DNA of 64,000 bases from an uncultured Gammaproteobacteria bacterium (GCA_964515545.1 CAZERI010000001.1:2803-66802); one strand, 5' to 3'; counted from the first letter of the stretch, positions 43,029-63,623 are shown. Numbers and translations are program-made. Notes: a model not told the origin generated them from the letters alone.

Positions 43029-43037
43029 AAAAAACGT

Positions 43038-43109: not shown

Positions 43110-43138
43110 ATTCTCTATCTACAACTACTTTAACGAGG

Positions 43139-43222: not shown

Positions 43223-43231
43223 TTGTTTTGC

Positions 43232-43322: not shown

Positions 43323-43335
43323 ACTTTTTCTTAGT

Positions 43336-43409
43336 ACTCTCGAGAAGATTCGAACTTCCGACCTCAACGTCCGCAACGTTGCGCTCTATCCAACTGAGCT
43401 ACGAGAGCT
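43336..43409 (-). tRNA. tRNA-Arg, anticodon GCG by my reading (needs tRNAscan confirmation)
   Basis: Reverse complement GCTCTCGTAGCTCAGTTGGATAGAGCGCAACGTTGCGGACGTTGAGGTCGGAAGTTCGAATCTTCTCGAGAGTA. Perfect anticodon stem CAACG/CGTTG with loop TTGCGGA. Confidence 0.65.
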
Positions 43410-43472
43410 TATTAAGGCTAAAATAGTGTGTGTATTGTACCCAATATTATGATGTGAAGCAAATAACTATAG

Positions 43473-44066
43473 CTATAAACGATGCTCTAAGGGGAAATTC
43501 TTCTCAAGCCAGCTGGCTGATTTTTCCATAAAGGTAGGCTTAACATACTCCCTATAAGGAAGGAAGTGTAAAAGGACATCGCGAACTTGTTCCTGATGCA
43601 TATTCCCCAAGACAAGAGTCAACTCTCCAGGATACCACGCTTTGGTTCCGACGATCAGAGTAGTTACTCCATTTTGGGTCTTAAAATAAAAGTCATAAAG
43701 CTCTTGCCATAAGAAAAAATGGTCCTCTACCATGAGTCCCTCTGAAGTTACTTTATAGTGGAAGTCATGTGGCGCAACAGTATTAAGAGCATATACCAAA
43801 AATACAAGAGCCAGTACCAGTGCCATGAGGACGTATTGCGAAAAGAGGAAAAGAATAATCTCTAGCAAAAGCATAATGATTAAAATATTGAGGAAATACT
43901 CCCTATTCTTTTTCTGAAAAGGTCTTCCTGGCGCAGACCATGCTAGAAGAGTTTTTAATTCATAAAGGGAAGAGTCTTCAAAGTCTGGTGTGAAAGATCC
44001 AGTGGCATGTTCTGGGAGAAGCTCTTCATGGGGAGCTTCAATGAGTAGTTCTTTATTTGATTCCAT
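43473..44066 (-). CDS. membrane protein, probable bPH_2-type (TM hairpin plus PH-like domain), hypothetical
   Basis: Two TM helices (ILIIMLLLEIILFLF / LMALVLALVFLVYAL) followed by a soluble domain. Confidence 0.5.
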   Translation of the reverse strand: MESNKELLIEAPHEELLPEHATGSFTPDFEDSSLYELKTLLAWSAPGRPFQKKNREYFLNILIIMLLLEIILFLFSQYVLMALVLALVFLVYALNTVAPHDFHYKVTSEGLMVEDHFFLWQELYDFYFKTQNGVTTLIVGTKAWYPGELTLVLGNMHQEQVRDVLLHFLPYREYVKPTFMEKSASWLEKNFPLEHRL

Positions 44067-44150
44067 ACTTTTACTCTATAAGAGTAAAGCGTTCCGGTCA
44101 AGTCGTGCCTTGTTCTTGCTTTGGCTGATCTGATATACTTTGTATCCGTT

Positions 44151-44240
44151 GGAGAGGTCGCATAGTGGTCTAGTGCGGATGTCTTGAAAACATCTGAGGG
44201 TTCACGCCCTCCGCGAGTTCGAATCTCGCCCTCTCCGCCA
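44151..44240 (+). tRNA. tRNA-Ser (UGA), CCA encoded
   Basis: GGAGAGGTCGCATAGTGGTCTAGTGCGGATGTCTTGAAAACATC + long variable arm + GCGAG-TTCGAAT-CTCGC + CCTCTCC-G-CCA. Anticodon loop CTTGAAA. Confidence 0.85.
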
Positions 44241-46613: not shown

Positions 46614-49388
46614 TTATTTAAGACTTTTTAAGAGGGCTTTAAAGAAGTTCTTCCCTGTACTTGCCGTCGTTTTAGCAACAGCTATTCCTCCATCTCTAAA
46701 GCCACGTCGCACCTCACCAACATTGGCGATACTGCGAAGCCACTTAATATCTTCTCTCGTAAAGAAGCGTCCTGGGATCACGGTATTTTTGAGATCATTT
46801 TCATCTACTAAAAGATCTCCTGGTATGATTTCAAGCGCCCTGATAACAGCCTCTATAGTCGCTCCATCCCATTTAGGATAGGGGCTATTGTGGTCGATAT
46901 GAGAATAAATATCTGCTGCTACTCTTCCTAAGGCTATTTGTTTGAACATCTGAATTCTTCCTTTATCTGTGTCTATTAGACGTGGATCTACGACATGATT
47001 GAGGACTTTCCCTGTCGGATTCCCATCTTTATCCTTTATTTCCTTACCATCCTTATCATACTGAGGCAGACGCATCCAGAACTGCTCCCGATCAATAAGC
47101 TCATGTCCGAACATAGAATCAGCAAGTGACATATCTGCAAATACATGAGGCGTACCATTCACATCAACCTGAGGAAGACCTTGATGGATCTTAGGATCAT
47201 ACTCAACGATATCTCTGACTTGCTTGCTATAAAGATTAGGCCACCCCTGATATCCATAACGGAGAGGCTTAAGGAATCCTTCCTGAATTTTTTGACCAAA
47301 AGATGCTGGATCGTAGAGTATCCCTCCAAATCGAGCCTGTTCAACTATTTTATCCAAATGCAACTCATCTGCTCCGATGAAGGACTTATATTCCTGTACC
47401 CAGCGAAAAATACCATTGTTGTAAAGGTTGACTTCACTCAGATCAGGGAATGTCAATTCACTAAGGATACGTCTGGATTCAGCAGTCTCTTCCTCAACCT
47501 TTCGCTCTTCAGCCTCTGTAAGAGTTCCCATACCATTTCTCTCATCAATTTCAAGTGCTGGAGGAGTAATACGGGCTAAATCTTCAATAATTTCGCGAAC
47601 TAGCTTCCCATCCTGATTACGAATCGAATCCAGGTAATTTACTCCCAACGTCTTAATGAGGCCGACATTGTACATGTTCCCAAACATCCCACCCTTGCTA
47701 GGGCCAGCTAATTTTTTCCGGTAATTTTGGAAACGAAGCCATTTCGCTTGAGCATCATAAGCAGTTCCTCCTAAATCGTTACGAGTTGCAATTCCTGTCC
47801 AGCGAGTTGTCAAAAATGCATAGTCTTCTGCCATCTCAGTGGTGTCTGTATCCATCACAAAGCCTCCATTCTCACGGAGGTATTCCCCATCTTTACCCCT
47901 CAGATACATGTGATACTTATGACCGATAGCGTCTTGGATCAGTCCCCGTACCATTCCTCTTACACGAGGATCTACCTGAGCTTGAGGGAAGATATTCATA
48001 TACTTAATGAATGCTTCTCTATTTTTTACTTTGCCGTCAGGGCCGAATATCGTATCTAAATTCGCATTAGAGATATATTTTTCCTCCAGGTGACCGAGAC
48101 TTTCTCCTGAAAATCTATTAGATTCATTTTCCTTACCAGCCAAATGTGAACGCACTCTTTCAAAGCCTTTTCGGGTAAAGAAGTCTGAATTCCCGCCTAT
48201 CATCTCTTGAAGCTTTTCATAATCTGCTAAGTGATAATATGCAGCGATAGCCGTAGCGATACTTTGTCCCATTCGGGTATCCTGCTTCTTATAATCTCTT
48301 ACATATTTTCTGTGCTCATGATGCCCCTCGCCTTCATGTCCCTGATGGGCTTGGAGAGTCTCTCCTTCATGAAGCGGTGGATCAAGTTTGGCTTTAGCCT
48401 CCATTGGCATTTCCAAAAGCCAATGCCACATACTTTTCCCATTCCAAGTATTACGAGTCATATTGTTGTCTTTGAAAATAGACTGCATCACTCCGTCTAT
48501 TCCGCCCTCATCACTCATACCCTTTCCACCTGTTCGGTAGGTAATATCACGACCGCGTACGATCATACGGACGAATAATTCACGACGAATTTGTTGGGCA
48601 AGCTCGGCATGAACTGCTCCATCCTGATCAGTAAAGAACTTCTCATCATCTTCGAGGATCTGACTCATGTGAATATGTCTATTACCAAAAGGGATACCTA
48701 CTTTAGCAAAGTAGTTGACTGGAGTATCTGGGCCATCCTCTCCCTCAAAAAAGACCATACGCTTACGAATCCAGCGCAGGAAATTAGCTTCATTAATGAC
48801 TGTTCTTTCACGTTCTTTTCCATCCTCATCTATATAAGTGCCTTCTTTTTTAAAAAGCGGGAACTTGTCCTGGAACTCCGGCTCATACTCAGCAATTGAA
48901 CGTACCAGCTCATTAATAGTATTTGGCTGCCTGTAAGATTTGTTTAGCTCCTTACGTTCTTTTGAGGTTAATTCATCATCATCTGCTAATGCTCTTCTTG
49001 GGTCTATAAACTGTCTATGGAGAGACTCAGGAGATTGTGCTCCAGAAGAAGCAGGATTTTCTAAGCGGGGTTCTACAAGACTTTGAAGAATTCTATTTCT
49101 TAGGAGTGCTTGTTCCTGAGGAGTAAGTTCACGACCAAGGTTTGCTTCCTGAGCAGCTCTCTCCTGACTCATGATCACATCAAGCATCTGCCTCATATTC
49201 TCCGTAGCTGGCTGTGGAGTAGACGGTGCTGCGCCTGTTAATTCATCAATTTCCCATGCGGGAATCTCTGGTGTAGGACTACTTGATGCCATAAATTCTC
49301 CTGTACCACTAGCATACGATCTATGAGGCTGTGAAGTCAACGCATCCCCCTCCCCTGGGACAAAGTTGTGAGGTCTATATTCTTTCAT
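46614..49388 (-). CDS. large (924 aa) soluble protein of unknown function
   Basis: Long ORF with coding-like composition, no TM and no motif I can assign. His-rich patch HQGHEGEGHHEHRK. Downstream of, and co-oriented with, the ATPase-wHTH gene. Confidence 0.65.
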   Translation of the reverse strand: MKEYRPHNFVPGEGDALTSQPHRSYASGTGEFMASSSPTPEIPAWEIDELTGAAPSTPQPATENMRQMLDVIMSQERAAQEANLGRELTPQEQALLRNRILQSLVEPRLENPASSGAQSPESLHRQFIDPRRALADDDELTSKERKELNKSYRQPNTINELVRSIAEYEPEFQDKFPLFKKEGTYIDEDGKERERTVINEANFLRWIRKRMVFFEGEDGPDTPVNYFAKVGIPFGNRHIHMSQILEDDEKFFTDQDGAVHAELAQQIRRELFVRMIVRGRDITYRTGGKGMSDEGGIDGVMQSIFKDNNMTRNTWNGKSMWHWLLEMPMEAKAKLDPPLHEGETLQAHQGHEGEGHHEHRKYVRDYKKQDTRMGQSIATAIAAYYHLADYEKLQEMIGGNSDFFTRKGFERVRSHLAGKENESNRFSGESLGHLEEKYISNANLDTIFGPDGKVKNREAFIKYMNIFPQAQVDPRVRGMVRGLIQDAIGHKYHMYLRGKDGEYLRENGGFVMDTDTTEMAEDYAFLTTRWTGIATRNDLGGTAYDAQAKWLRFQNYRKKLAGPSKGGMFGNMYNVGLIKTLGVNYLDSIRNQDGKLVREIIEDLARITPPALEIDERNGMGTLTEAEERKVEEETAESRRILSELTFPDLSEVNLYNNGIFRWVQEYKSFIGADELHLDKIVEQARFGGILYDPASFGQKIQEGFLKPLRYGYQGWPNLYSKQVRDIVEYDPKIHQGLPQVDVNGTPHVFADMSLADSMFGHELIDREQFWMRLPQYDKDGKEIKDKDGNPTGKVLNHVVDPRLIDTDKGRIQMFKQIALGRVAADIYSHIDHNSPYPKWDGATIEAVIRALEIIPGDLLVDENDLKNTVIPGRFFTREDIKWLRSIANVGEVRRGFRDGGIAVAKTTASTGKNFFKALLKSLK

Positions 49389-49457
49389 GGCCAGAGTATA
49401 TGGCCAGAAGCATCCTAGTCCTTGAGAAAATCCTTATAAAATCCTTTTAGAGCGCCT

Positions 49458-50771
49458 TTACTGACTAAATTTTACGCCTCTTCCTTTAAGAGTATGGAGA
49501 AAATGAGGATGAGTGGGGTTACTTTCTATTTTTCTTCTTAGTCTAAAAAGAAGCTGATCTATCGCCTGATCTGAAATCCCTTCACTTGATTTATCTTCTT
49601 TCCAAACGATATGGATGATAGTCTCTCTGTCTACTACCTCTCCGACGTGCTGGAGCAGATAACGGAAAAGTCTAAATTCCCCCTTCGTTAGATCATCTGA
49701 GAACACTACCTCTCCCCGCTTAATGGTATTGGTAGCCTCATCATAGACGAACTTAGCCTGATTTTGGCTGAATAGCCCTGCCTCTATGGCATCTTTAAAA
49801 AGAGGGAGGCAAAGCGTATTAGCCTTTACAAGACCTACTGCTTCTAAGTAAGGATTAGTACTAAAATCACCAGCCATGATGCTGGCCTGCTCCGAAGGAC
49901 TTAATTCCTGCCAAAGACTGATAAGTGCTGTCTGAAGTGTTTTTTGATTGAGTAAGAATTTAGATATATTATCCGGCATCTCCGAAAGGGTGATGAGTGC
50001 TTCAAGCGAAACAATTAAAAGCCTCATATGTCCTCCTGTTACATATATCAACTCTTCCTTTACTCGCTGGGGAACTTTCTTACCCACTAACTTCTCCAGA
50101 TAGCTAATCCGAAATTCACTACTCTCTCTGTCTAGTAGCGGAAGATAAATAGTATGTCCTACTACAAAGTCACTAAAAATAGATATGATCTGTGGTTCAA
50201 GCGTCTCCTCAAGTGGTCTTGCAACTGAAAAAATAGCTGCAAAACGATACTTAGCCTTATCTTGAAGTGAGCGGAGGAGGATAAAAAAACGGTCATTTAC
50301 CTGAGGAATATAATCATCGAAATTCTGGCAGAGAAAAATTACTGTTAACTTTTTTTCAATTGCCAAATACTCAATCGTATTTTTGAGATACTGAGCATAG
50401 ACCAGCTCATCGTTATAGGAAAGAGCATCTTTGAAAAGAGCGTCTGTTTTTTCATATTCTTCACTCATCTCCCGCTCGCGAAGAGAATTTAAAAGACACA
50501 AAAAAATATACTTCAAGATATCAGGATATGATCTTTGTCTTACTTCAGAAAAGTTAATCATGACAAAATGGACGATGCCATGATATTTAGGGAAATGCCT
50601 CAGCCTTACTGCCTTGTTATAAGCCAAAAGTCCTAATATATTTGATCTTCCCACCCCAGGCAGGCCAATGAGTTGAGAGGAATTCCCTTCTTTAATAAAG
50701 CTAACTGTCTTTTCAAGTTCGTTATCCCAGCTTTCCTCAGGATAAAGTGACTCGAAGTATTTTACTTCCAT
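49458..50771 (-). CDS. one-component regulator: N-terminal STAND/AAA-like P-loop NTPase fused to C-terminal OmpR/PhoB-type winged-helix DNA-binding domain
   Basis: P-loop IGLPGVGRSNILGLL. C-terminus LTKGEFRLFRYLLQHVGEVVDRETIIHIVWK...DQLLFRLRRKIE...LHTLKGRGVKF matches Trans_reg_C. Confidence 0.7.
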   Translation of the reverse strand: MEVKYFESLYPEESWDNELEKTVSFIKEGNSSQLIGLPGVGRSNILGLLAYNKAVRLRHFPKYHGIVHFVMINFSEVRQRSYPDILKYIFLCLLNSLREREMSEEYEKTDALFKDALSYNDELVYAQYLKNTIEYLAIEKKLTVIFLCQNFDDYIPQVNDRFFILLRSLQDKAKYRFAAIFSVARPLEETLEPQIISIFSDFVVGHTIYLPLLDRESSEFRISYLEKLVGKKVPQRVKEELIYVTGGHMRLLIVSLEALITLSEMPDNISKFLLNQKTLQTALISLWQELSPSEQASIMAGDFSTNPYLEAVGLVKANTLCLPLFKDAIEAGLFSQNQAKFVYDEATNTIKRGEVVFSDDLTKGEFRLFRYLLQHVGEVVDRETIIHIVWKEDKSSEGISDQAIDQLLFRLRRKIESNPTHPHFLHTLKGRGVKFSQ

Positions 50772-50849
50772 ACATAACTATTGTATGGCATCCTCCTAGG
50801 ATGTTCAAACCAACTTGCAAAGTAATCTCAAGCTATCTACTATGAATAT

Positions 50850-52760
50850 ATGCGCAAAGTTCTACTTTTATTGGTCTCCCTTTTCTTTAGCATTATTTAT
50901 CTTACTAACTCTACTATTGCAGAAGCAGATTCAGTCACAGTAGGCGACAATGCTACACTCACGTCGACCTTCCCCCTGTTTGATAATAATAAGGTTGTCA
51001 GCGACGTAGAGTTTGTCATAAATACATCATCTGACGGTAGTGGTACAGATCTTGACACAATCCGTTATCTTATTGGTGGAGATGGTTGTAAATTGCAGAA
51101 TTCAGAAACTCAAAATTTTAGCAATCTCAAATGCTATTTTAATAAAAGATACGCTCCTGATACCCAAGTTACGATTCAGCAAGATTTCCAAACAGGCTCA
51201 CTAACCCCCGACTCCTTCCCTACAACCTATTATTATTTTGTACGCAAGACAAATGGAGGACCTTATAGCCAAGTCATACCTCTAACCCTTAATCAACCTT
51301 CCGATGTTGCAAAAATCAACCTATCTGCATCAGGAGCTGTATGGGGCAAAAAGGGAACAATTACTCTAGGCAATCTCCCTAAGGCATTTTCTCAACAAAA
51401 AGCTACTATTACTATCCACCGAAACGCTGGCGGAATGGATGATAAGCACTTCTCAGTATTTGTCAACGGCGATAAGGAGAAGAGCAAGGCTATCTGCTCC
51501 AGTCCTTCAGGAGATGACATCTTTGCCTTTAATGATAAAGACTGTTCAGACGGTAAGTTTGTTGTTGATGTCAATTATCTGGTCTCTGTATTCCCACAGC
51601 CCGCAACAGTAGTTAATATCCCTGTTCCTCAAGCATCACTTCAGGATACCTATACACTCTCTCTTGCAGGACCTAATACTGCATCTACTACTCTCGTTGT
51701 ATTATATAGTCCAACTGGTGTAACTCTGGAGGCTAGTCAAACTTCGGTGACTACTGGGACAAAAGTTTCATTTACCGCAAGTGGTTGCCCTGATGGATCA
51801 AAGATTGATTTTGCTTATGGATCTGATACCTCAACAAAAGATGTCAAAGATGGTAAGGCAACTTTTGAAAAGACATTGGAGGGACAAGGCGGTGAAGCTT
51901 TTTCAGTTACTGCTACCTGCCAGGCAACCGGCAGAAGGTCAAATACTGTCTCTGTAACAATAGATAAGCCAGGTGAGGAAAGAACAGAAATTGATCCTCC
52001 TCTTCCTATCGCTGCTGATACCCCCTTCACCATCATTGTTCATGGTATGGAAAGTGATGGGCAATGCTACTTTATCGAAATAAAAGATGTGAACGCTGAT
52101 AAATATCTTGATCCTGGAAATAGGGACGCTCTCCTGGGGGGGGATTGTAGTAGTGGAGTAGATGATGGAGGCAAAAATCCCGCTTCAGTCACTCTCGGAG
52201 GGACAGCTCACCATACTGAGCAATTATATGACCTCTTTAAGTCCAATAATGATACTTATACTGTAACTTTTGATAAAGGTCTCCCTGATGGGGCATATCA
52301 ATTCAGACTTTATACATCCAACAAAGGGACCAGCCCCTGCTGGCCATATGACTGCCGAAATGAGGCTGATGACCCTCATCACTCTGCCGACCTTGATTTT
52401 ATTATTGGGAATGGGGAGTTTACAGCAATTGCTGCTCCCTCTCCTGCTTGCGGAGAGACCAACGACGTCGGAGAATGTACCTCTGTAAATACGGCTATCG
52501 GCCCGCTCCCAATCCAACTCTCAGAATTTACTAAGACTATTTTTTCTGTCCTTCTTAGTATCTCAGGCATTATCATACTCTACATTGTCATTCGTTCTGG
52601 CTATATCCTCCTCTTCTCCCAAGGAAATGCTGAGAAAGTAAAAGAAGCGCAAGATAGACTAACCTCTGCTGTTGTTGGCCTCCTCTTTCTCATCTTCTCC
52701 CTCATTGTCCTCCAGACTATAGGTGTTGATATACTCCATATACCTGGATTCGGCGCATGA
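50850..52760 (+). CDS. large secreted protein with C-terminal VirB2/TrbC-like pilin domain (pilin-fused adhesin/minor pilin candidate)
   Basis: Signal peptide. About 540-aa extracellular Cys-containing region. The C-terminus TIFSVLLSISGIIILYIVIRSGYILLFSQGNAEKVKEAQDRLTSAVVGLLFLIFSLIVLQTIG is homologous to the downstream pilin paralogs. Confidence 0.65.
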   Translation: MRKVLLLLVSLFFSIIYLTNSTIAEADSVTVGDNATLTSTFPLFDNNKVVSDVEFVINTSSDGSGTDLDTIRYLIGGDGCKLQNSETQNFSNLKCYFNKRYAPDTQVTIQQDFQTGSLTPDSFPTTYYYFVRKTNGGPYSQVIPLTLNQPSDVAKINLSASGAVWGKKGTITLGNLPKAFSQQKATITIHRNAGGMDDKHFSVFVNGDKEKSKAICSSPSGDDIFAFNDKDCSDGKFVVDVNYLVSVFPQPATVVNIPVPQASLQDTYTLSLAGPNTASTTLVVLYSPTGVTLEASQTSVTTGTKVSFTASGCPDGSKIDFAYGSDTSTKDVKDGKATFEKTLEGQGGEAFSVTATCQATGRRSNTVSVTIDKPGEERTEIDPPLPIAADTPFTIIVHGMESDGQCYFIEIKDVNADKYLDPGNRDALLGGDCSSGVDDGGKNPASVTLGGTAHHTEQLYDLFKSNNDTYTVTFDKGLPDGAYQFRLYTSNKGTSPCWPYDCRNEADDPHHSADLDFIIGNGEFTAIAAPSPACGETNDVGECTSVNTAIGPLPIQLSEFTKTIFSVLLSISGIIILYIVIRSGYILLFSQGNAEKVKEAQDRLTSAVVGLLFLIFSLIVLQTIGVDILHIPGFGA

Positions 52761-53086
52761 AAGACTTACTAGCACTTACTATTGGGACTACCCCTATTGA
52801 GGCCCCTAATGGAATCCCTACAGGAGGCCTGCCAAAAGCCTATGATATCGGCTCAAGTATCCTTCTGCTTATCTTTGTCGTTGCCATCCTCCTAGCCCTT
52901 GCTTTTATCATCTGGGGGAGTATCAGATGGATTATGTCAGGAGGAGATAAAACCAAAGTTCAAAGCGCCCGCAATACGCTTATTTATGCTGTGGTAGGGC
53001 TTATTTTTATTTTCCTTTCTTTCCTTATCATCAACCTCATCACGTACTTCTTCAACGTTCCTTCTGTCACTACTTTACCCCAGTAA
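52757..53086 (+). CDS. VirB2/TrbC-like T4SS pilin paralog 1
   Basis: Two hydrophobic helices separated by IWGSIRWIMSGGDKTKVQSARNTLIYAVVGL. Overlaps the upstream stop. Confidence 0.6.
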   Translation: MKDLLALTIGTTPIEAPNGIPTGGLPKAYDIGSSILLLIFVVAILLALAFIIWGSIRWIMSGGDKTKVQSARNTLIYAVVGLIFIFLSFLIINLITYFFNVPSVTTLPQ

Positions 53087-53131
53087 ATTTGCCTATTGAC
53101 AACTCTTTTAGACTCTGCCTAATATAGATAT

Positions 53132-53551
53132 ATGTTAAACAAATTGAAATCTACCACAGGTCTTACAGCTCTTGCTTTTGCTGCTTCTACTGCTGTGCCG
53201 ATGCTTGCTTCTGCAGCTACATATGATCTTTGTCCTAGAAAATCAGGCGGAGACTTTAGTGTACTCTGTAATCTTAACTTTAACGGTACGTTTGGCAATA
53301 TCATCACTATTGTCTTTATCGTTGCTATTATCCTCGCTCTTGCTTATCTTATCTGGGGTGGTATCAAATGGGTCCTCTCAGGTGGTGACAAAGCTAAAGT
53401 GGATGCTGCCCGTCAGGCAATCGTCGCTGCTATTGTAGGGCTTGTAATCGTCTTTTTGGCCTACTTTATCATTAATATCGTTGTCCCTATCTTTGTCCCT
53501 AATTTTAGCCTACAAACCCTTTCTCTCCCTACTATCAACCAGCAGCAGTAA
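53132..53551 (+). CDS. VirB2/TrbC-like T4SS pilin paralog 2
   Basis: Signal peptide (AVPMLASAAT), then IITIVFIVAIILALAYLIWGGIKWVLSGGDKAKVDAARQAIVAAIVGLVIVFLAYFIINIVV. Confidence 0.65.
   Translation: MLNKLKSTTGLTALAFAASTAVPMLASAATYDLCPRKSGGDFSVLCNLNFNGTFGNIITIVFIVAIILALAYLIWGGIKWVLSGGDKAKVDAARQAIVAAIVGLVIVFLAYFIINIVVPIFVPNFSLQTLSLPTINQQQ
53287..53436. repeat. 150-bp tract identical to 54134..54283 (pilin core, copy A)
   Basis: Read directly: TACGTTTGGCAATATCATCACTATTGTC...GCAATCGTCGCTGCTATTGT is identical in both copies. Flanks are diverged, about 85 percent downstream and unrelated upstream. Confidence 0.9.
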
Positions 53552-53606
53552 TCTTCTGAGAAATCTTTTGTCTTGTTATTCTTTTTGTATTTGTTACTAT
53601 TAATAT

Positions 53607-53933
53607 ATGTTTCATGATTGGGAAGGCTGTCTAGCAGGGCCTGACAATACAATTCCTACTATCCAGTGTGTTTTCCCTCTTTTTCAAAACATCGTTTCAG
53701 CTGCTTTGCTATTAGGAGGAGTAACTGCGCTTATTTTCCTTATCTGGGGTGGATTCAAGCTTCTGAGATCCCAAGGCGACCAAAAGCAAGTCCAGGGAGC
53801 CCGCCAGACGATAACCTATGCTCTTATTGGGCTTATCCTTATCTTCCTCTCATTCTTTATCATAAATACCATAGCCACTCTTACTGGCTTTGAATGTATA
53901 AAGACACTAAGTAGCTTCCAGGACTGTAAATAA
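53607..53933 (+). CDS. VirB2/TrbC-like T4SS pilin paralog 3
   Basis: LLLGGVTALIFLIWGGFKLLRSQGDQKQVQGARQTITYALIGLILIFLSFFIINTI. Confidence 0.6.
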   Translation: MFHDWEGCLAGPDNTIPTIQCVFPLFQNIVSAALLLGGVTALIFLIWGGFKLLRSQGDQKQVQGARQTITYALIGLILIFLSFFIINTIATLTGFECIKTLSSFQDCK

Positions 53934-53945
53934 GAGCTAGGTTAC

Positions 53946-54473
53946 TTGACAAGCCCCTCTGCCTCCACCTATCATGGACTCATGCTTAAGAAAGCATTAT
54001 CCTTTATTGGATTCTCCGGCTTTATTGGTATCCTTTCTGGCATACTGCCTCTGCCTGCTCTAGCTGGGATTTGTCCTACCAGTACTGGAGGGGCGAACTT
54101 TAGCGGACTTTGTAACCTCAGTTTCTCTGGTAATACGTTTGGCAATATCATCACTATTGTCTTTATCGTTGCTATTATCCTCGCTCTTGCTTATCTTATC
54201 TGGGGTGGTATCAAATGGGTCCTCTCAGGTGGTGACAAAGCTAAAGTGGATGCTGCCCGTCAGGCAATCGTCGCTGCTATTGTGGGGCTTATCTTTGTTT
54301 TCCTGTCCTACTTTATCATCAATATCGTTGTGCCTATCTTTGTCCCTGGCTTCTCCCTGCAAAAGCTTTCCTTGCCAACTATTAATGGGGACGGCGGAGA
54401 CCATAGTAGCGATCCACTTGAATGTTCAAGGGCCGGAGGATCTTGGGACTCATCTACAAATACCTGTAACTAA
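53946..54473 (+). CDS. VirB2/TrbC-like T4SS pilin paralog 4 with extra C-terminal Cys-containing extension
   Basis: The core is identical at protein and DNA level to paralog 2. Unique N-terminal region and C-terminal tail DGGDHSSDPLECSRAGGSWDSSTNTCN. Confidence 0.65.
   Translation: MTSPSASTYHGLMLKKALSFIGFSGFIGILSGILPLPALAGICPTSTGGANFSGLCNLSFSGNTFGNIITIVFIVAIILALAYLIWGGIKWVLSGGDKAKVDAARQAIVAAIVGLIFVFLSYFIINIVVPIFVPGFSLQKLSLPTINGDGGDHSSDPLECSRAGGSWDSSTNTCN
54134..54283. repeat. 150-bp tract identical to 53287..53436 (pilin core, copy B)
   Basis: Same as above. Even the spurious antisense/alternate-frame ORFs (53172.. and 54139..) share identical peptides. Confidence 0.9.
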
Positions 54474-54486
54474 TATCTTCCATAGC

Positions 54487-54855
54487 TTAGCTATTAGCTA
54501 CCTGCTTTTCAGTCATTACCTGCTGTAATTGTCCACGAATACTTGAAAGATTAGTCTGAGGATCTCCTATCACTGTGTGCTCCAACTTCTCCATTTCCAT
54601 CTTTGTCTGCTCTTTTATAGTTTTATAAAAGGCTTCATCGACATTCGTCTCAGGAGGAAGCTTGTCTATAGCCATCTGCACATTGCGTTGATAGTGAAGT
54701 GAGAAAATCGAGTCATAAAGACCTCGGATAATTGCCTCAATGGCTGCTGATCGTTCCAGGTCAAGGGTAGGCAGTACTCTCAGGAGATCTGCCTTATAAA
54801 GGGTATCAAAAGGAAGTGTCTTGATGATATCTTCGAGCTTGAGATTGCTATCCAT
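54487..54855 (-). CDS. small cytoplasmic protein, member of a local two-gene paralog pair, unknown function
   Basis: 122 aa. IIKTLPFDTLYKADLL...IRGLYDSIFSLHYQRNVQMAIDK is paralogous to the next gene. Confidence 0.5.
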   Translation of the reverse strand: MDSNLKLEDIIKTLPFDTLYKADLLRVLPTLDLERSAAIEAIIRGLYDSIFSLHYQRNVQMAIDKLPPETNVDEAFYKTIKEQTKMEMEKLEHTVIGDPQTNLSSIRGQLQQVMTEKQVANS

Positions 54856-54876
54856 ATATTTATCCAGCTGTGGAGA

Positions 54877-55236
54877 TTAGTGAGTAGCTGGAGACTTTTT
54901 TTGCAAAATTTGATCTATCTTAGATCTAGCATCAGATAAATCTACTGAGATAGTAGTATCTACAAATTCGCTAAGCAGATCCTGCTCTGTCTTCTCTTTA
55001 ACTTTTTTATAGAAATCTTTTGTTAAAGGGTTGTCTTTATCATTACTCTTCTCCATTTCAAGACGAATATTCTCTTGGAGTTTTAGCTCATATAATCCAT
55101 CATATAAGTCCCAAATAACGCGCTCTATTGAGAACTTCTGATCAGGATCAAGATTATCAAATGAACCCATCAGGCTTTCCTTAAATTCATTATCAAAAGG
55201 GAGAATCTTTATAATATTTTTAGTCGTTAATTCCAT
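54877..55236 (-). CDS. small cytoplasmic protein, paralog of 54487..54855
   Basis: MELTTKNIIKILPFDNEFKESL...VIWDLYDGLYELKLQENIRLEMEK. Start 2 nt after the stop of the 972-aa gene (coupled). Confidence 0.5.
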   Translation of the reverse strand: MELTTKNIIKILPFDNEFKESLMGSFDNLDPDQKFSIERVIWDLYDGLYELKLQENIRLEMEKSNDKDNPLTKDFYKKVKEKTEQDLLSEFVDTTISVDLSDARSKIDQILQKKSPATH

Positions 55237-55237
55237 A

Positions 55238-58156
55238 TTACGATAAAGCCAGCGCCTCCTCCTGCAATCTATCCATAATAGCAGCAAATCCTACGCGAAG
55301 ATGCCTTCGATCAAGTGTTCCTCTTTCTATTCGTGTATTCATCTCTGTAAAGACAGCAGGCAGACTATTTCTAACACCTAAGTTGAGGCTCTGATTTAAT
55401 AACCGAGCCAGCTTATCTGGAGGTAACACTGTCGATATCTGACTGAAGTACTCACTTCTATTTCGATCTGAACGGCTGCGGTAATCAAAGAAAAGATCCA
55501 TGAGTTCAAAATATCCCTTTGGGGGATGCTTCTTATCAACCAGGTCTTGCTCGCTTTGTGAAAGTATTGCCCTATCAGCTGCTGCATATCGGGCAAGGTT
55601 GGTAACTTTATCTCTTGCTGCTGCCTCATGGGTGATCTCCTGAGAGGCGATAAAGAGTGACTCCTGTCTCTCAATCATGTCAAGAGAAAGCTGGAGCTGT
55701 ACCTTCTCAGCACTCAGAGTAGGTGCAAGATCTTTAGCTTTAGTATCTATTGCTTCTATCTGCTTATCATCATCTTTAATTCCTTCTTCAAGTCCTGCCC
55801 GATACCTATTGCGAAGCATCCGAGCTGCTTCTGGTTTAGCAAGAGCCAGCTCAGCCCTTACGTCACTTCCCCTTCTAGCCAATCTTGCTCTTAATACAGC
55901 ATAGGCTGCATCCGTAGAAAGAATATGAATAAGCTCGGCATCTGACTTTGTATTAAGCAGATCATCTAACGTAATCCGTAATCCTGCCACAATCTCGGCT
56001 AAAGCCAGGCGCTGATCTCTGGGACTTGGGTCAACTATCTCCTCCCGTCTTGCCTTAAGCTCAGACTTAGCCTGAATTATCATCTTTCGGAGAGCAGCCT
56101 TCTCATCAGGTGTGCTGTTAGGAAAAGAATATGGTGGAGCTACAGCCATAATGATGAGCTGATCAACAGTCTGTGATTCTAAAAGGGCATCAGTAATCGT
56201 CGCACCTGTCGTCCGGCGCAAAGTCTCATAGGATAGACGAGTGGCTACAAGCTCTTTAGGAGCTTGCACCAGGAGTTCTCTCTGAGCCTCCTCAAATGTT
56301 TTGGTTGTATCTCTAAAGGTATCATCTAGCCCCTGTAACCCCTCTCTTTTACTCTTAAGCTCGGCTATCTCTTCCTCGAGCCTCCGTATCTCATCTCCAT
56401 ACACTGAGTTGGCATGATCAGCAGCTTCTTGCTTTATATCGTTTTGTATGTCAGGAGTCAGTTTGTCAGAAGGACCAAGAGCCGCTCTTGTAGCAGCTAG
56501 ACGTCGTGTCCGCTCAGCCTCAAGTTCCCGGTTGTAGTTATTTTTTGCAGTCTCTAACTCGACTTCTTTTCCTGTATTAGGAGTAGCTGTTCTATCTCTT
56601 AATGAGGTATTAATTGTCGTTATTTCGACAGTTACAGCTGCATTGACCTGTCCACTGGTGGGATTAGGTGGAATGGTGGTAAGTCCATAGGGAGGCTTCT
56701 CCAATTTATCAACCGTCTCCTTCAAAGTCTTTAATGCTTCGTCGCTAGCTTTAAACCGATCAAGCTCTGCCTGCCTTCCATCTCTCTCGCCTGCCAGAGT
56801 CTGCCTCCGCTCATTCTCCTGCTTCATCCTCCGCTCAAGTACACGTGAGGCATCCCCATTATATTCACTCAGTCTAGTCCTCAAAGTAGCTACCGGACGA
56901 TCTTTGGATCTGGTTTTTATATCCGCTTCATTTCTAATATTCTCCTTGGCATATTTCGTCATTACTTTAGATCGAGCTTTAGTCATCCGATCCTGATTCT
57001 CTGCAAGAGTATGAGCAGCTGGATCATACCCGCCTTCATAATACGCATCGATGATATCTTTACCTACCAGCGAAGAGGATTGTTCAAATCCGCCCAGTGT
57101 TGTATTCTCAAAAAGATTTAACTCAGGCATGGTGTCTAATCGGTCTTCCGGTACGCCTAAGTCTTTGTATAAATCTCTGCGGAGTTCTAATGCCTGGAGT
57201 CCTTCATCTCTCAAGCGACTCACATACTGTTTATCTCCGTTGGGTTCCACTGTTTGATTCGCTACATCGACATTAAACTTAGTAAGATCGATGTTATACA
57301 TGATCTTGAAGTACTCTACCTCATCGGCATTAGTCTGAAGAGCAGCTAAGGCATCAACTGATCTTTTAATCTCAAGGGTCTTACCCGTCCTAAATAACTT
57401 TCCTGTCTCATTACCTCCAACCAACCCTGCAACTCCTGCAGCAAAACCCACTCCTCCTCCTACTACAAAACCACGGAGTCCATCAGCTTTTCCCCCAATA
57501 TCTGCTCCAGCCATCGCAGAGCCAGCTAATGTTCCCACCACTGCTCGGAATTTACCCAAATGCTCTTCTGGCCCAATTTCATGCAGCTTCGGTCGAAGAG
57601 TGCCATGCCAAGCGCGGTTAGCAGCCCCTTGCCCCTGATCTTTTCCCTGCCTGTATACTCCTGGATCAACGACGTCATCTCGCTCCCCAGGTCTATTCGT
57701 TGTAGCATATGCTCCTACGACTTGCAGCTTACGACTACCAAGCTGCTGCAAAAGACCATCCGCAAATTTGAGACCGTTGGTACTGCCTAAGAAATCAGCT
57801 ATTTTTGCTGCACGCACATCAGCATTTTCATCACCCATCAGAATCCAGGCTTGTCTTTCCTCCTCATGCCCGGGGATATCTAAAAGAGCAGGATTTTTTT
57901 CCTGAACCCTCGCTAAATTATCCATGTACTGATCAAGTTGCTTTCGTAGTCTTTGAATGACAACTTCACTTATTTCCGAGTATTCCGATTTTGTAAGATT
58001 ATCTTTACCAGTTAGCTTTTTCTTATCCAGCTCATTGCCAGGATTATCCTCAAAAAGGAAAGCATCACGACGAACTGAGATAGTCTGTCCCTCCGCGACA
58101 TTTTTGCCAGCGGGACGACTAGGTTGTGCTGTTTCTAGATGACCTAAATCAGCCAT
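55238..58156 (-). CDS. giant (972 aa) coiled-coil-rich protein with internal Gly-rich hydrophobic segment, unknown function
   Basis: Long E/R/K/L/A-rich helical regions. GLRGFVVGGGVGFAAGVAGLVGG segment. No recognised catalytic motif. Confidence 0.65.
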   Translation of the reverse strand: MADLGHLETAQPSRPAGKNVAEGQTISVRRDAFLFEDNPGNELDKKKLTGKDNLTKSEYSEISEVVIQRLRKQLDQYMDNLARVQEKNPALLDIPGHEEERQAWILMGDENADVRAAKIADFLGSTNGLKFADGLLQQLGSRKLQVVGAYATTNRPGERDDVVDPGVYRQGKDQGQGAANRAWHGTLRPKLHEIGPEEHLGKFRAVVGTLAGSAMAGADIGGKADGLRGFVVGGGVGFAAGVAGLVGGNETGKLFRTGKTLEIKRSVDALAALQTNADEVEYFKIMYNIDLTKFNVDVANQTVEPNGDKQYVSRLRDEGLQALELRRDLYKDLGVPEDRLDTMPELNLFENTTLGGFEQSSSLVGKDIIDAYYEGGYDPAAHTLAENQDRMTKARSKVMTKYAKENIRNEADIKTRSKDRPVATLRTRLSEYNGDASRVLERRMKQENERRQTLAGERDGRQAELDRFKASDEALKTLKETVDKLEKPPYGLTTIPPNPTSGQVNAAVTVEITTINTSLRDRTATPNTGKEVELETAKNNYNRELEAERTRRLAATRAALGPSDKLTPDIQNDIKQEAADHANSVYGDEIRRLEEEIAELKSKREGLQGLDDTFRDTTKTFEEAQRELLVQAPKELVATRLSYETLRRTTGATITDALLESQTVDQLIIMAVAPPYSFPNSTPDEKAALRKMIIQAKSELKARREEIVDPSPRDQRLALAEIVAGLRITLDDLLNTKSDAELIHILSTDAAYAVLRARLARRGSDVRAELALAKPEAARMLRNRYRAGLEEGIKDDDKQIEAIDTKAKDLAPTLSAEKVQLQLSLDMIERQESLFIASQEITHEAAARDKVTNLARYAAADRAILSQSEQDLVDKKHPPKGYFELMDLFFDYRSRSDRNRSEYFSQISTVLPPDKLARLLNQSLNLGVRNSLPAVFTEMNTRIERGTLDRRHLRVGFAAIMDRLQEEALALS

Positions 58157-59647: not shown

Positions 59648-60868
59648 ATGGAAAATCATCCTATCCCACAAGATGTAACAGGATTTCAGTTTAAGCTTAT
59701 CGGCAATATGACGGTAAAGCAGTTTGCCTACTTAGCAGCTGGAGGAGTCATTGCCGTCCTCTTTTACTATCTGCCTGTTTTTATTCTCCTTAAGCTGGTA
59801 ATCATGGTCTTAGGCGGAGGGTTAGGGGCTGCCCTTGCCTTTCTTCCTGTTGAGGGACGTCCACTAGATCTTATGATTACCAATTTCATTCGAGATCTCT
59901 TTGCCCCCACTCAATATATGTACCATAAAGAGGGAGGCATGCTGGCTATTTCCATGATTTCTCTCACACCACCCAAACCCGAAAAAAAAACTACCTCTCA
60001 AAAAAAGAAAACTGAAGATAAGCAGTTTGAACGCGAGGTTAAACTTAATGAGTTTCTTAGTCATTTAGCAAAAAGTGCCCACACTAAATTAGATGAGAGA
60101 GAAGATCTGTACTTATCGGCTATCTTTAACCCTAATGCTACTCCGCAGTTAGTCTCTCTTTTTGAACAAAAGGCAGCTGCCGGACACGAGTTATCAGACG
60201 AGGAAGCTCTCCGCGTGAAGATGATCCAGTCCCCTGAGGATATGGAGCATCAGCTGGAGAGAGAATCCGAAGCTATCAAACAGGAACTTGCCTTAGCGGT
60301 AAAAGAAGAACAAACACTTCAAGAGAAGCACCAATCAACTGCTGAGGTGCATGTCCATGTCGGAGATCTGGAAAAACAACTCCAAGACATGCTCCAACAG
60401 AAGCAGCAGCTCGAACAGGAACTTTTAAAGCTGAAAGGACAACAGCCAGTAAATCCTCCTCAAAACCAAGAAACACCCTCTCAGAAGCCTGCTACTCAGG
60501 ATTCCCAAAATGTACGCGTTGTTCCCACTGACAAAGCATCCAGCATCGGACTTCCTGCAGTGCCTGATGTTCCTAATATCGTCCTAGGAATTGTTAAAGA
60601 TCCAAGGGGAAATGTTCTCTCGGGAATTCTCGTTGAGATTCGTGATAAAGACGGCAGTCCCGTCCGCGCATTTAAGACAAATGGTCTTGGCCAATTTGCC
60701 TCAGCCACCCCCCTGAGTAATGGAGTCTATACAGTAGAATTTGAAGACCCTAAAGGCAAGCAGCAATTTGAAGTCGTACAAATTGAAGCGAAAGGAGAGA
60801 TAATGCTGCCTCTTGAGATTATTTCTCATGACGCCAGAGAGCAACTAAGAAAAGAGCTTTTTAACTAA
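59648..60868 (+). CDS. membrane protein with N-terminal 2-TM domain (VirB3/PrgI-like position and topology), central coiled coil and C-terminal beta domain
   Basis: FKLIGNMTVKQFAYLAAGGVIAVLFYYLPVFILLKLVIMVLGGGLGAALAFLPV. Located two genes upstream of virB4. Confidence 0.5.
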   Translation: MENHPIPQDVTGFQFKLIGNMTVKQFAYLAAGGVIAVLFYYLPVFILLKLVIMVLGGGLGAALAFLPVEGRPLDLMITNFIRDLFAPTQYMYHKEGGMLAISMISLTPPKPEKKTTSQKKKTEDKQFEREVKLNEFLSHLAKSAHTKLDEREDLYLSAIFNPNATPQLVSLFEQKAAAGHELSDEEALRVKMIQSPEDMEHQLERESEAIKQELALAVKEEQTLQEKHQSTAEVHVHVGDLEKQLQDMLQQKQQLEQELLKLKGQQPVNPPQNQETPSQKPATQDSQNVRVVPTDKASSIGLPAVPDVPNIVLGIVKDPRGNVLSGILVEIRDKDGSPVRAFKTNGLGQFASATPLSNGVYTVEFEDPKGKQQFEVVQIEAKGEIMLPLEIISHDAREQLRKELFN

Positions 60869-60874
60869 ATCTTT

Positions 60875-61534
60875 ATGAAAACATCTGCCCAGAAAAATCA
60901 CAATTCAACCCAAAAATTCACTGAGATTGTTGATATCGTTGATGATATCGTTCTCTTCTCAGGAGGAACTGCCGGCATTGTTATTGAGATTACTGCCAGT
61001 AACTTTGCCCTTCTTTCTAAAAAAGAACAGGATGCTAAAATCTATGCCTATGCCTCTCTTCTCAATTCGCTTACGTTCCCTATCCAAATTATCATTCGTA
61101 ACAAACGTATGGATATCAGCTCATACTTAAAGGATCTCGAGGAGCAGGAACTAGGAACAAAAAATGATCTTCTGGCTCGTCACATCGCTATGTATCGTGA
61201 CTTTGTCCGCGAGATGGTAAAAGTTAATGTAGTTTTAAATAAAGCCTTCTATGTCGTCATAGGATTTTCTTCTCTCGAGGCAGGCCTAAGCGGAGTAAAA
61301 TCACAAGTGGCTAGAAATGAAGTCGAAAAAGAAGCATTTGTCACTGCAGCTCAGAAGGCGTTATATAACAAAGCTGATTCTGTCCATCAACAGCTTGGCA
61401 AGCTGGCTGTGACTGCCAAAACACTTGAGAAGGAAGAGCTCATTAAACTCTTCTATGATATTTTTAATGATGCTCCTATCCAAGGTACCCAGGCTGATTC
61501 AGATATTAATACGCCTTTAATAAAACCTGCCTAA
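60875..61534 (+). CDS. hypothetical cytoplasmic protein immediately upstream of virB4
   Basis: 219-aa ORF, coupled to the VirB4 start (1-nt gap). Confidence 0.5.
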   Translation: MKTSAQKNHNSTQKFTEIVDIVDDIVLFSGGTAGIVIEITASNFALLSKKEQDAKIYAYASLLNSLTFPIQIIIRNKRMDISSYLKDLEEQELGTKNDLLARHIAMYRDFVREMVKVNVVLNKAFYVVIGFSSLEAGLSGVKSQVARNEVEKEAFVTAAQKALYNKADSVHQQLGKLAVTAKTLEKEELIKLFYDIFNDAPIQGTQADSDINTPLIKPA

Positions 61535-61535: not shown

Positions 61536-63623
61536 ATGGGATTATTTAATAAAAAACAGCCAGTACCTCAGCCAGCAGCCCAGACTGGAACACCTGCTGT
61601 GCCTTCCACCCAACCGACAGCAGCCTCGAGTGTTAAAGCAACAAAAAGTTCTACACCTCAGGCAAATGGTATTCAAAAACTTGAGAAGGGCATGATGTCA
61701 CTTGTTGATCTCATTGCTCCTTCCTCAGTTGAGGTAGATTTCCGTTACATCAGGGTGGGAGAGAAATTTTATTCGACATTGTTTATCGTCGGCTATCCCC
61801 GTTTTGTCTCACCAAACTGGCTGCAGCCTATTATTGACTACGACCATACGTTGGATATCTCCATGTTTTGTTATCCTACTCAATCAGGGGATGTTCTCTC
61901 AGATCTCCGGCGTAAAATTGCTGAGATGGAAGCAACCATTATGTCTGATGAGGAGAATGGCAAACCAGCTAATCCTACTGTCCAAGCAGCACTTGAGGAC
62001 GCTCTGGCTCTCCAGGAAGAATTAGCAAAAGGTGTAGAGAGATTTTTTCAGTTTAGCTTCTATATCAACCTCTCAGCAGATAGTGTCGGTGAGTTAGAGG
62101 AAGCAACCAAGCAACTCCGGACAACTCTCGCCTCTCTTCTTCTCACAGCCAAGACAGCTACACTCCAGATGGAAGAGGGCTTTAAATCAAGTATTCCTAT
62201 GGCCCAGGATCGCCTTTTTATTACCAGAAATATGGATACTACTTCCCTTGCCTCAACTTTCCCTTTCACATCCGCTGTACTGACACAAAATAAGGGCGTG
62301 ATGTATGGAGTCAACCAGCAGAATGGCTCTCTTATTATCTTTGATCGTTTCTCCCTAGAGAACGCCAATGAGGTAGTACTCGGTAAATCTGGAGCCGGAA
62401 AATCTTATCTTATTAAGCTTGAGATCATGCGTCAATTTATGTTAGGAACTGAGGTTATTGTGGTAGATCCAGAAGGTGAGTATGAGACATTGGTGGGAGA
62501 ATTAGGTGGAGAGATCGTAGAATTCTCATCTGCCTCCCCTATCAAAATTAATCCTTTTGATCTCTCTCAACTCTATGAACCAGGAGAAAATGAATTAGGG
62601 CTTAAGATTCTCTCTCTCCATGGACTCATGAAACTAATTATGGGAACCTTAGATGCTGAACACGATGCAATCCTTGATAGAGCGTTAGTTGAGACATATC
62701 ATCAGAAAGGCATTACCCCCGATCCTGCTACTCAAAAACTAACTCCACCACTTCTTGAGGATCTTTATAAGACTCTTCTCGGTATGGAGACTCAAGCAGG
62801 TAAAGAAATGGCATTTCAGCTTGAAAAATTTATTAAAGGAAGTGCCTCAGGTATTTTTAACCAAGCCTCAAATTTCGATATCACAAATCCCTTAACTGTA
62901 TTTAATATTAAAAATCTTGAGGAAGAGTTACGCCCTATTGCCATGCATATTATTCTTGATTTCGTCTGGACAAAGGTTAAGAAATCTCTTAAAAAGCGAC
63001 TCCTCGTTTTAGACGAAGCGTGGTATATGATGAAGTTTGAAGACTCAGCTTCATTTGTCTACTCTATTGCCAAGAGAGCACGTAAATATTACTTGGGACT
63101 TACTACCGCGACACAAGACGTAGAAGACTTCCTCAAAACGGATTATGGTAAAGCAGTTCTTACTAATTCATCTATCCAAATTCTTCTTAAGCAGGGAACT
63201 GCTGAGGTTGATTTAGTGGGAGAAACCTTTTACTTATCAGAAGGCGAGCGTGAACTCCTCCTTTCTGCGGATATTGGAGAAGGACTCTTCTTTGCCGGAC
63301 AAAATCACGTAGCACTCAAGGTACTTGGTGCCCCATTTGAACATGATCTTATTACTTCCAACCCAGAGGAGCTTATCCATAATCAGCAGCCTCTCTCTCA
63401 AGAGGTGCAGACTCCCGTGCCTGAAACTACTCTCCCTGATGGAATTCCAGACAATACGACTCCACCCCTACCTGTCCCTGATCAGTCAGTACCTGTAGCA
63501 GCACCGGAAACTCCTGCTACGCCTGCTGCTCCTCCATCATCAAACGTATCAGGAGAGACTCCGCCTCCAGCCAACAACCCTTCCTTAAATGGAATTCCTA
63601 CCCCTTCAAATCAGGTTCAATAA
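61536..63623 (+). CDS. virB4: type IV secretion ATPase VirB4/TrbE family
   Basis: Walker A VVLGKSGAGKSYLIK, VVVDPEGEY, Walker B LLVLDEAWYMM, RKYYLGLTTATQ. 695 aa with PT-rich C-tail. Confidence 0.9.
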   Translation: MGLFNKKQPVPQPAAQTGTPAVPSTQPTAASSVKATKSSTPQANGIQKLEKGMMSLVDLIAPSSVEVDFRYIRVGEKFYSTLFIVGYPRFVSPNWLQPIIDYDHTLDISMFCYPTQSGDVLSDLRRKIAEMEATIMSDEENGKPANPTVQAALEDALALQEELAKGVERFFQFSFYINLSADSVGELEEATKQLRTTLASLLLTAKTATLQMEEGFKSSIPMAQDRLFITRNMDTTSLASTFPFTSAVLTQNKGVMYGVNQQNGSLIIFDRFSLENANEVVLGKSGAGKSYLIKLEIMRQFMLGTEVIVVDPEGEYETLVGELGGEIVEFSSASPIKINPFDLSQLYEPGENELGLKILSLHGLMKLIMGTLDAEHDAILDRALVETYHQKGITPDPATQKLTPPLLEDLYKTLLGMETQAGKEMAFQLEKFIKGSASGIFNQASNFDITNPLTVFNIKNLEEELRPIAMHIILDFVWTKVKKSLKKRLLVLDEAWYMMKFEDSASFVYSIAKRARKYYLGLTTATQDVEDFLKTDYGKAVLTNSSIQILLKQGTAEVDLVGETFYLSEGERELLLSADIGEGLFFAGQNHVALKVLGAPFEHDLITSNPEELIHNQQPLSQEVQTPVPETTLPDGIPDNTTPPLPVPDQSVPVAAPETPATPAAPPSSNVSGETPPPANNPSLNGIPTPSNQVQ

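Follow-up and report, generated by a model that had tools for sequence, protein, structure and literature searches.

In Neisseria, gene conversion acts between pilin copies of type IV pili, with variable segments being transferred between one expressed gene (pilE) and promoterless, partial silent copies (pilS). Pilin genes of type IV secretion systems (T4SSs) can also be found in several copies. Patescibacteria harbour tandem arrays of 2-11 VirB2-like pilin genes, which are abundant in Microgenomatia, the class of the Levybacteria, and whose products share a mean identity of 25% and a maximum identity of 54% within an array (Quinonero-Coronel et al. 2025, PMC12102498). The same survey, in which the word 'conversion' does not occur, suggests a role of these arrays in the adaptation to different hosts (PMC12102498). 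In Southlakia epibionticum, neither the T4SS nor its cluster of six pilin genes is dispensable (Wang et al. 2023, cited in PMC12857230). Tandem copies of trwL (virB2) and trwJ are found in the Trw T4SS of Bartonella, where the system is used for host interaction and the copies are thought to be co-expressed (PMC2610397), and where concerted evolution alongside diversification is named in the title of a study by Nystedt et al. cited there. Here we describe a pilin array in a stretch of 64,000 nucleotides (GCA_964515545.1, CAZERI010000001.1:2803-66802), deposited as DNA of an uncultured Gammaproteobacteria bacterium and in its full length referred to as the window, in which two of four tandem pilin paralogs, P2 and P4, share an identical block of 150 nucleotides.

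In contrast to the pilE/pilS system, the genes concerned encode T4SS pilins, both copies are complete and preceded by promoter-like sites, and it is a conserved core that appears to have been transferred. The locus resembles the arrays of Patescibacteria in its tandem organization of PF18895 genes and in the composition of the wider region, which contains a VirB4 ATPase (CD1110 family, above the NCBIfam cut-off) together with PrgI and TrsD-like genes, but it differs from them in the distance of 5-9 kb between array and virB4, with large uncharacterised genes located in between, and from the survey in the 72% identity of P2 and P4, which includes an identical core of 50 residues. With Bartonella it shares tandemly amplified VirB2-homolog pilin genes of a T4SS, whereas in Bartonella, a diderm alphaproteobacterium, the MPF-T system is of plasmid origin and includes 7-8 copies of trwL, and diversifying selection on surface parts was reported (PMC2610397), while the ratio of non-synonymous to synonymous divergence (dN/dS) of the termini is, where measurable, below 1 in the array described here. 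We consider it very probable that the identical core of P2 and P4 reflects recent gene conversion on an old duplication and not a recent duplication. The process is known and so is the kind of locus; what is added is that some members of an array are far more alike than reported in the survey, via recurrent conversion of their core.

The shared core of P2 and P4

P2 (53132-53551) and P4 (53982-54473), both encoded on the plus strand as are all genes of the array, consist of 139 and 163 residues and match the family PF18895 (T4SS_pilin, gathering score 26.6 bits) with 32.9 and 27.8 bits, respectively. P2 additionally displays a weak match to PF04956 (TrbC/VirB2, E 7.5e-4). Its sequence suggests a Sec-type signal peptide (ending in ASA/A, with the stroke marking the predicted cleavage site), an N-terminal loop with a Cys-x12-Cys motif, helix 1, a basic loop, helix 2 and a short tail. 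P4 appears P2-like, with its own predicted signal peptide (ending in ALA/G) and a 28-residue C-terminal Cys-loop tail (C-x5-GG-x-W-x-SSTN-x-C-N) that contains two cysteines; in both proteins the n-, h- and c-regions of the signal peptide were judged by eye. The tail is conserved in the homologues P0002-P0006 and in a distant locus (L004), with the motif C-x5/6-GG-x-W-x-x-(S/T)-TN-x-C. In the original prediction, P4 was proposed to begin at 53946. Its start is most likely the ATG at 53982, since the TTG at 53946 opens a conserved TTGACA hexamer resembling a -35 element; the NCBI product for P4 (P0001) contains 163 residues, in line with this assignment.

The segments 53287-53436 of P2 and 54134-54283 of P4 (both on the plus strand) are identical over 150 nucleotides, with the match ending at the very next base in both directions, and constitute the longest repeat of the window, with their starts being 847 bp apart. 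The block corresponds to 50 codons with the translation TFGNIITIVFIVAIILALAYLIWGGIKWVLSGGDKAKVDAARQAIVAAIV and comprises the first helix, the short basic loop and the beginning of the second helix, in agreement with the helices modelled for P4. On its 5' side it abuts an indel of three nucleotides (an AAT codon found only in P4, directly 5' of the P4 copy) followed by diverged sequence, and on its 3' side it ends where mismatches resume. If the ungapped comparison of P2 and P4 is carried beyond the repeat, the identity is 90% over 252 nucleotides. In the flanks, the nucleotide identity amounts to 46% in the signal-peptide region, 63% in the mature N-terminus and 74.5% in the 3' region of the second transmembrane helix (TM2). 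The two remaining small paralogs, P1 (52757-53086, 109 residues, two hydrophobic helices, PF18895 33.0 bits) and P3 (53607-53933, 108 residues, four cysteines, PF18895 40.9 bits), are more distant, with 39-50% amino acid identity to P2 and P4, compared to 72% between the latter and 25-50% in every other pair. Inspection of the sequence of P1 did not reveal an evident signal peptide. The exact block, its location in the two transmembrane segments and their connecting loop, the divergence of both ends and the distance of paralogs 1 and 3 had all been part of the original prediction and are borne out by the analysis.

For P4, an AlphaFold2 model was obtained from an alignment of 17 sequences. It contains helices at residues 52-81 and 86-120, with predicted local distance difference test (pLDDT) values of 70-83 in these blocks, a mean pLDDT of 61 and a predicted template modelling score of 0.31. 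In this model, the protein would form a hairpin of two long hydrophobic helices joined by the short, positively charged loop KWVLSGGDKAKVDAARQ. A Foldseek search of the PDB with the model, whose low confidence and simple two-helix hairpin make it poorly discriminating, did not identify any match with E<4 and returned helical matches at E>4 only. A profile search of PDB sequences yielded one irrelevant match and no solved pilin.

Evidence for gene conversion

To place both genes into an evolutionary context, P2 and P4 of the window were combined in a codon alignment with their counterparts from four related arrays (L048, L128, L129 and L131). In the signal-peptide region, P2 of the window is 75% identical to P2 of L048 and L129 and 46% to its own P4, which in turn is 63% identical to P4 of L048 and L129. 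In the core block, P2 and P4 of the window are 100% identical, and neither exceeds 83% identity to any ortholog. The same columns are only 81% identical between P2 and P4 of L048 and L129, where the longest exact matches extend over 14 and 21 nucleotides. These relationships are reflected in neighbour-joining trees. In the 5' part, P4 of the window groups with P4 of L048 and L129 (bootstrap 100) and P2 with the respective P2 genes (bootstrap 80), whereas in the core, in conflict with the 5' tree, P2 and P4 of the window group with each other (bootstrap 100). Some bootstrap values may be misplaced after rerooting, and we have relied only on clades that are also seen in the identity matrices. 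In a Sawyer-type permutation test on 206 polymorphic sites, P2 and P4 of the window share a run of 54 concordant sites that is not reached in any of 5000 shuffles (p<2e-4). At the 81% identity of unconverted pairs, the chance of encountering 150 identical bases would be 0.81^150, or ~2e-14.

The synonymous divergence (dS), determined by the Nei-Gojobori method, changes abruptly at the end of the tract. Within the 50 codons of the core, synonymous differences between P2 and P4 amount to 0/37 sites in the window, compared to 25/38.5 in L048 and 22/38.7 in L129, and dS of the window pair rises from 0 in the core to 1.17 in the adjacent 3' TM2 segment and to 1.76 in the signal region. The claim of the original prediction that an identical core with variable ends is the signature of recent gene conversion is thus supported by conflicting trees, by the permutation test and by the step in dS from 0 to about 1.2 directly beyond the 3' end of the tract. 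The alignment across related genomes, which had been proposed as a check, shows flanks that group by gene position and a core that groups by genome, both in the window and in L128. In the latter, P2 and P4 share an exact tract of 265 nucleotides that extends across the entire core (100%), the greater part of the mature N-terminus and helix 2, the last of which it covers almost completely; in its sister strain L131, the core is 96.7% identical with an exact match of 97 nucleotides.

Related tracts were found in other lineages. P1 and P2 of L129 are identical over 59 nucleotides (2131-2189 and 2572-2630) and P1 and P2 of L048 over 37 nucleotides (3900-3936 and 4341-4377), and in both cases the tract has turned the P1-type loop (IRWIMSGGDKTKVQSARN in the window) into the P2-type loop (IKWVLSGGDKAKVDAARK). 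Among more distant Levybacteria-type loci, exact tracts in the helix-loop-helix region extend over 86 nucleotides in L072, 50 in L112 and 45 in L026, and L004, which contains three P2-like genes, one of them with a P4-type tail, displays tracts of 109, 68 and 44 nucleotides in this region. Such lengths are rare: the longest exact match within 614 pairs of pilin genes of the same locus, taken from 106 loci, has a median of 10 nucleotides and a 90th percentile of 14, and only ten pairs from eight loci reach 40 nucleotides, where the numbers are approximate, with some loci being the same contig from two collections. As characteristic of concerted evolution, these are independent events in separate lineages that differ in their boundaries or partners. 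The location of the tracts in the core might be explained by its being the most conserved part of the genes, in which homologous stretches are of sufficient length to initiate recombination and are renewed by each conversion.

Among the alternatives, a simple recent duplication, with P4 newly arisen from P2 and a core that has not yet diverged, would be in line with the tandem arrangement, the common orientation and the same architecture of both genes. We consider it extremely unlikely and have rejected it, as synonymous sites have reached saturation in the flanks (dS 1.76 and 1.17, compared to 0 in the core) and as three other lineages contain orthologs of both genes at the same positions, whose signal peptides and tails match those of the window, the P4-type tail being present even in the distant L004. 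The duplication that gave rise to P2 and P4 is old, because the signal-peptide region groups by gene position across the four related arrays. Selection on the nucleotide sequence, for example on an embedded regulatory or RNA element, could in principle hold both blocks identical. To this explanation, for which no supporting observation was found and which was equally rejected, we assign practically no probability: orthologs differ from the block of the window at 17-23% of its positions, with synonymous differences found all along the block. Nearly all differences are synonymous and the protein is almost invariant (dN/dS 0.04-0.05), so the nucleotide sequence is free to drift between genomes.

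It could further be argued that the copies are merely similar and that an assembler has made them identical or has threaded one consensus through both. A length of 150 nucleotides is near a common read length, two contigs break inside a copy of the repeat and the coverage of the ENA contigs is only ~2.3-2.4x. The structure of the window recurs in independent assemblies of the same strain from other samples (L001, L133, L134 and L135). Of the breaking contigs, an NCBI metagenome contig (L001) matches 53325-55035 of the window with one mismatch and begins 38 nucleotides inside the P2 copy, and L133 matches 48169-54188 and stops 55 nucleotides inside the P4 copy, which is the usual behaviour of short-read assemblers at a genuine repeat. 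A Logan contig (L135) is 100% identical to 53453-54508 and passes straight through one copy. Yet, a contig from ENA assembled with SPAdes (L134) is 100% identical to 53086-54765 and spans both copies, and an NCBI contig of 420,909 nucleotides carries both P2 and P4 as exact proteins. Moreover, the assembly of L131 has retained five single-base differences between near-identical copies, so a collapse is not inevitable, tracts of other lengths are found in related lineages, and the contrast to the 19% divergence of unconverted pairs would survive a few erased differences. An artefact of assembly thus appears very unlikely. All four differences between L133 and the window (53823, 53830, 53862 and 53868) are located within 46 nucleotides encoding helix 2 of P3, one of them replacing an invariant glycine, and at a coverage of ~2.3x they may be errors rather than traces of micro-conversion.

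Based on the observed tract, its significance, the orthology of its flanks and its recurrence in other lineages, we propose that the locus is a VirB2-like pilin array of a Patescibacteria (Levybacteria-type) T4SS in which P2 and P4, as old duplicates, would recently have undergone intrachromosomal, non-reciprocal homologous recombination between two direct repeats, presumably by a RecA-dependent pathway. Such an event would have overwritten 50 codons, which span the first helix, the cytoplasmic loop and the beginning of the second helix. We tentatively regard P2 as the probable donor, since its orthologs resemble the block of the window slightly more (83.3% and 82.0% identity) than do the orthologs of P4 (76.7% and 80.7%). 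Since the process recurs in relatives with other boundaries and partners, the membrane and packing core of the pilins would evolve in concert within a genome, while signal peptides and the P4 tail remain distinct. P2 and P4 would thereby retain interchangeable cores and might use the same assembly machinery or filament, to which P4 would add a surface tail.

Several points weigh against this interpretation. All sequences originate from metagenome assemblies that are mostly short-read and in part of low coverage (~2.3-2.4x in L133 and L134), and the identity of the copies is perfect at the level of assemblies, since some genuine differences between near-identical copies might have been lost during assembly. 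The direction of transfer depends on an identity gap of a few percent. The assignment to the VirB2 class is derived from Pfam and genomic context, with an AlphaFold2 model of low confidence (mean pLDDT 61) and no match to a solved pilin. A co-assembly of P2 and P4 would be a likely consequence of their shared core, and the account given for P1-P4 as a whole has been drawn from gene sequences.

The presumably exposed termini and the upstream fusion protein

The original prediction had proposed that the tract provides a substrate for recombinational variation. In such a programmed process, recombination in the tract would shuffle exposed pilin ends, or delete and fuse genes, and thereby alter antigenicity or the specificity for host receptors. 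By analogy to the topology of VirB2/TraA pilins described in the literature, the termini of P2 and P4 would be exposed at the surface. The published speculation on host adaptation (PMC12102498) is in line with the proposal. So is a Logan contig of 1035 bp (L132, from SRR30113344), in which 52744-53436 of the window is joined to 54284-54625, with an 847-bp deletion that removes P3 and generates a P2::P4 fusion of 164 residues (P0117), the exact product expected of crossing-over in the tract. Finally, almost all differences between the otherwise near-identical strains L128 and L131 are located in their pilin array.

Despite these features, we consider programmed variation unlikely. In a cassette-type system, one expressed locus would be accompanied by promoterless or truncated silent copies, and the transferred segments would be variable, exposed parts with many alleles; P2 and P4 share neither property. 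Both are full open reading frames, each with a conserved pair of -35/-10-like elements, and neither is therefore a silent cassette. The putative promoter-like sites are TTGACA-18-TAATAT for P2 (53096-53125, 10/12 matches in a consensus scan) and TTGACA-18-TATCAT for P4 (53946-53975, 11/12 matches), both on the plus strand. They are conserved in the five genomes compared (the window, L048, L128, L129 and L131), with the -10 element ending six nucleotides before the ATG. A motif of the Shine-Dalgarno type was not detected before any of the five pilin genes and, in light of this and of the short distance to the -10 element, the pilin genes may be transcribed into leaderless mRNAs. A further small conversion tract is suggested in L128, where the -10/start region of P4 has come to resemble that of P2.

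Every tract, here and in seven other loci, homogenises a conserved core or loop and does not move variable segments, and the tract of L128 homogenises even nearly the whole mature N-terminus. Pairwise Nei-Gojobori estimates of dN/dS for the mature N-terminus and the P4 tail, which had been suggested as a check, are 0.02-0.55 where measurable, and thus below 1, in segments of 20-30 codons with often saturated dS and hence low power; the P4 tail is conserved. In five other assemblies of the same strain, no variants of the tract were found. Taken together, the complete genes, the homogenised cores and the uniformity of these assemblies speak against a variation of exposed pilin ends as originally envisaged. 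The fusion in L132 is encoded on a 1-kb contig obtained by k-mer assembly, a procedure which in L135 likewise took a single path through a copy of the repeat. L132 may thus be a real recombinant or a k-mer-assembly shortcut at low coverage. An exact look-up of the P3 protein found it only in samples other than SRR30113344. As the P3 subtype is kept in most arrays, its loss would probably be costly. That the fusion is both real and frequent appears doubtful to us. It seems equally improbable that crossing-over in the 150-nucleotide core occurs at appreciable frequency in nature, which would generate P2::P4 fusions devoid of P3 and reciprocal duplications and would let the tract act as a structural on/off switch that sets which subunits make up the pilus of an ultrasmall bacterium. 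If it were true, the switch would act on a system that is essential for epibiotic growth in the single cultivated relative that was tested.

The difference between the strains L128 and L131 resembles allelic exchange between strains rather than between paralogs. In coordinates of L131 (with an offset of +1190 in L128), positions 1-1770 are identical, 1771-4838 contain ~290 differences and 4839-8433 contain two. The diverged stretch extends from the 5' end of a divergently transcribed regulator gene across the fusion gene described below, P1, P2 and P3 to the first 28 nucleotides of P4, and its right-hand boundary is no more than ~80 nucleotides away from where the P4 conversion tract starts. 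One segment of it, which encodes part of the N-terminal ectodomain of this fusion protein, is nearly unalignable. The pattern resembles an allelic replacement by which the array has been exchanged between strains, but it could alternatively result from two co-existing alleles that were sampled, or mixed, by different assemblies.

The fusion gene is the first of the five co-oriented genes of the array. It is located at 50850-52760 in the window, and its stop codon overlaps with the start codon of P1 (ATGA). The encoded, presumably secreted protein of 636 residues consists of a signal-like N-terminal segment, a long ectodomain and a C-terminal pilin-type two-helix domain (residues 557-623), which scores 23.1 bits (E 7.9e-5) with PF18895 and thus remains below the 26.6 cut-off. 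The four tandem paralogs named in the original prediction all pass this score, and the count has to be extended by a fifth, weaker pilin domain at the end of the upstream reading frame. The related genes are found at 3418-4749 in L128, 2231-3559 in L131, 689-1975 in L129 and 2482-3768 in L048, and the length of the proteins ranges from 428 to 636 residues across lineages. Among these proteins, the C-terminal ~95 residues are highly conserved and the ectodomain is unalignable among the window, L129, L048 and L128. From this and, under either reading, from the difference between L128 and L131, we infer that the ectodomain is a likely determinant of specificity, and that the protein is a candidate host-recognition subunit on a pilin anchor.

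The wider locus and its biological meaning

Homologues of the pilins were identified in Patescibacteria, chiefly in metagenome-assembled genomes (MAGs) of Levybacteria/Levyibacteriota. In most of 46 genome loci, the array begins with a gene for a large protein whose C-terminus weakly matches the pilin profile and continues with genes encoding ~110, ~135 and ~105-130 residues, and the P3 subtype is kept throughout Levybacteria arrays. Relative to this pattern, P4 is an extra gene of the lineage of the window. The full synteny of five genes together with the flanking genes is shared by L048, L128, L129, L131 and one protein-only contig from JGI. Of the long related contigs, the closest (61,911 bp, with P0006 and P0011) is not among the 80 loci of the metagenome scan and was compared at the protein level only.

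Downstream of the array, at a distance of 5-9 kb, follows a module of three genes on the plus strand that encode a PrgI (VirB3-like) protein fused to a CarboxypepD_reg-like domain (59648-60868, PF12666 37.9 bits compared to a cut-off of 27), a TrsD-like protein resembling the N-terminal part of VirB4 (60875-61534, with weak NCBIfam matches to VirB4_plasma at E 3.8e-9 and TrsD at E 2.3e-3, both under the cut-off) and a VirB4-like conjugal-transfer ATPase (61536-63623, NF045971 388.5 bits compared to a cut-off of 325, and PF19044 TraG P-loop 92.6 bits). The function of VirB4 seems to be split between the 219-residue TrsD-like protein and the ATPase, whose gene starts one nucleotide further on. 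An NCBIfam search with the large neighbouring proteins of 763, 924, 972 and 452 residues did not match any family. Immediately downstream of the array, two adjacent genes on the minus strand (54487-54855 and 54877-55287) encode paralog-like proteins of 122 and 136 residues with a common N-terminal …I(K)xLPFD… motif; their synteny is kept in relatives, where both contain 118-119 residues, and neither matches Pfam. A cluster of six tRNA genes (four Ser, two Arg) is found at 42183-44240, just upstream of the secretion-system region. Elsewhere in the window, we observed a tRNA-Ile with the anticodon UAU (10035-10108), two tRNA-Met(CAU) genes (8296-8370 and 8577-8645, the latter of only 69 nucleotides) and degenerate, linker-like Pro/Thr-rich coding repeats with a periodicity of 6-12 nucleotides in two neighbouring genes (23279-23515 and 24648-24812). 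In the adjacent reading frames 1177-1992 and 1979-2749, a segment of 164 nucleotides (1807-1970 and 2579-2742) is 79% identical, defining tandem paralogs devoid of a conversion-like exact tract.

The described features have implications for the interpretation of pilin arrays. The repeat breaks or misjoins short-read assemblies, and counts of pilins in MAGs may consequently be underestimated or chimeric. In the search for host specificity, the hypervariable ectodomain of the fusion protein is a better candidate than the termini of the small pilins. T4SS pilin arrays are among the few candidates for a conserved host-contact structure in Patescibacteria, and the system is essential in the single cultivated species that was tested (PMC12857230). 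Within these arrays, the concerted evolution of the core of some members refines the published picture of uniformly divergent pilins with a maximum identity of 54%, and it points to P2 and P4 and, in some lineages, P1 as subunits with a common core, which would probably also follow a common assembly pathway.

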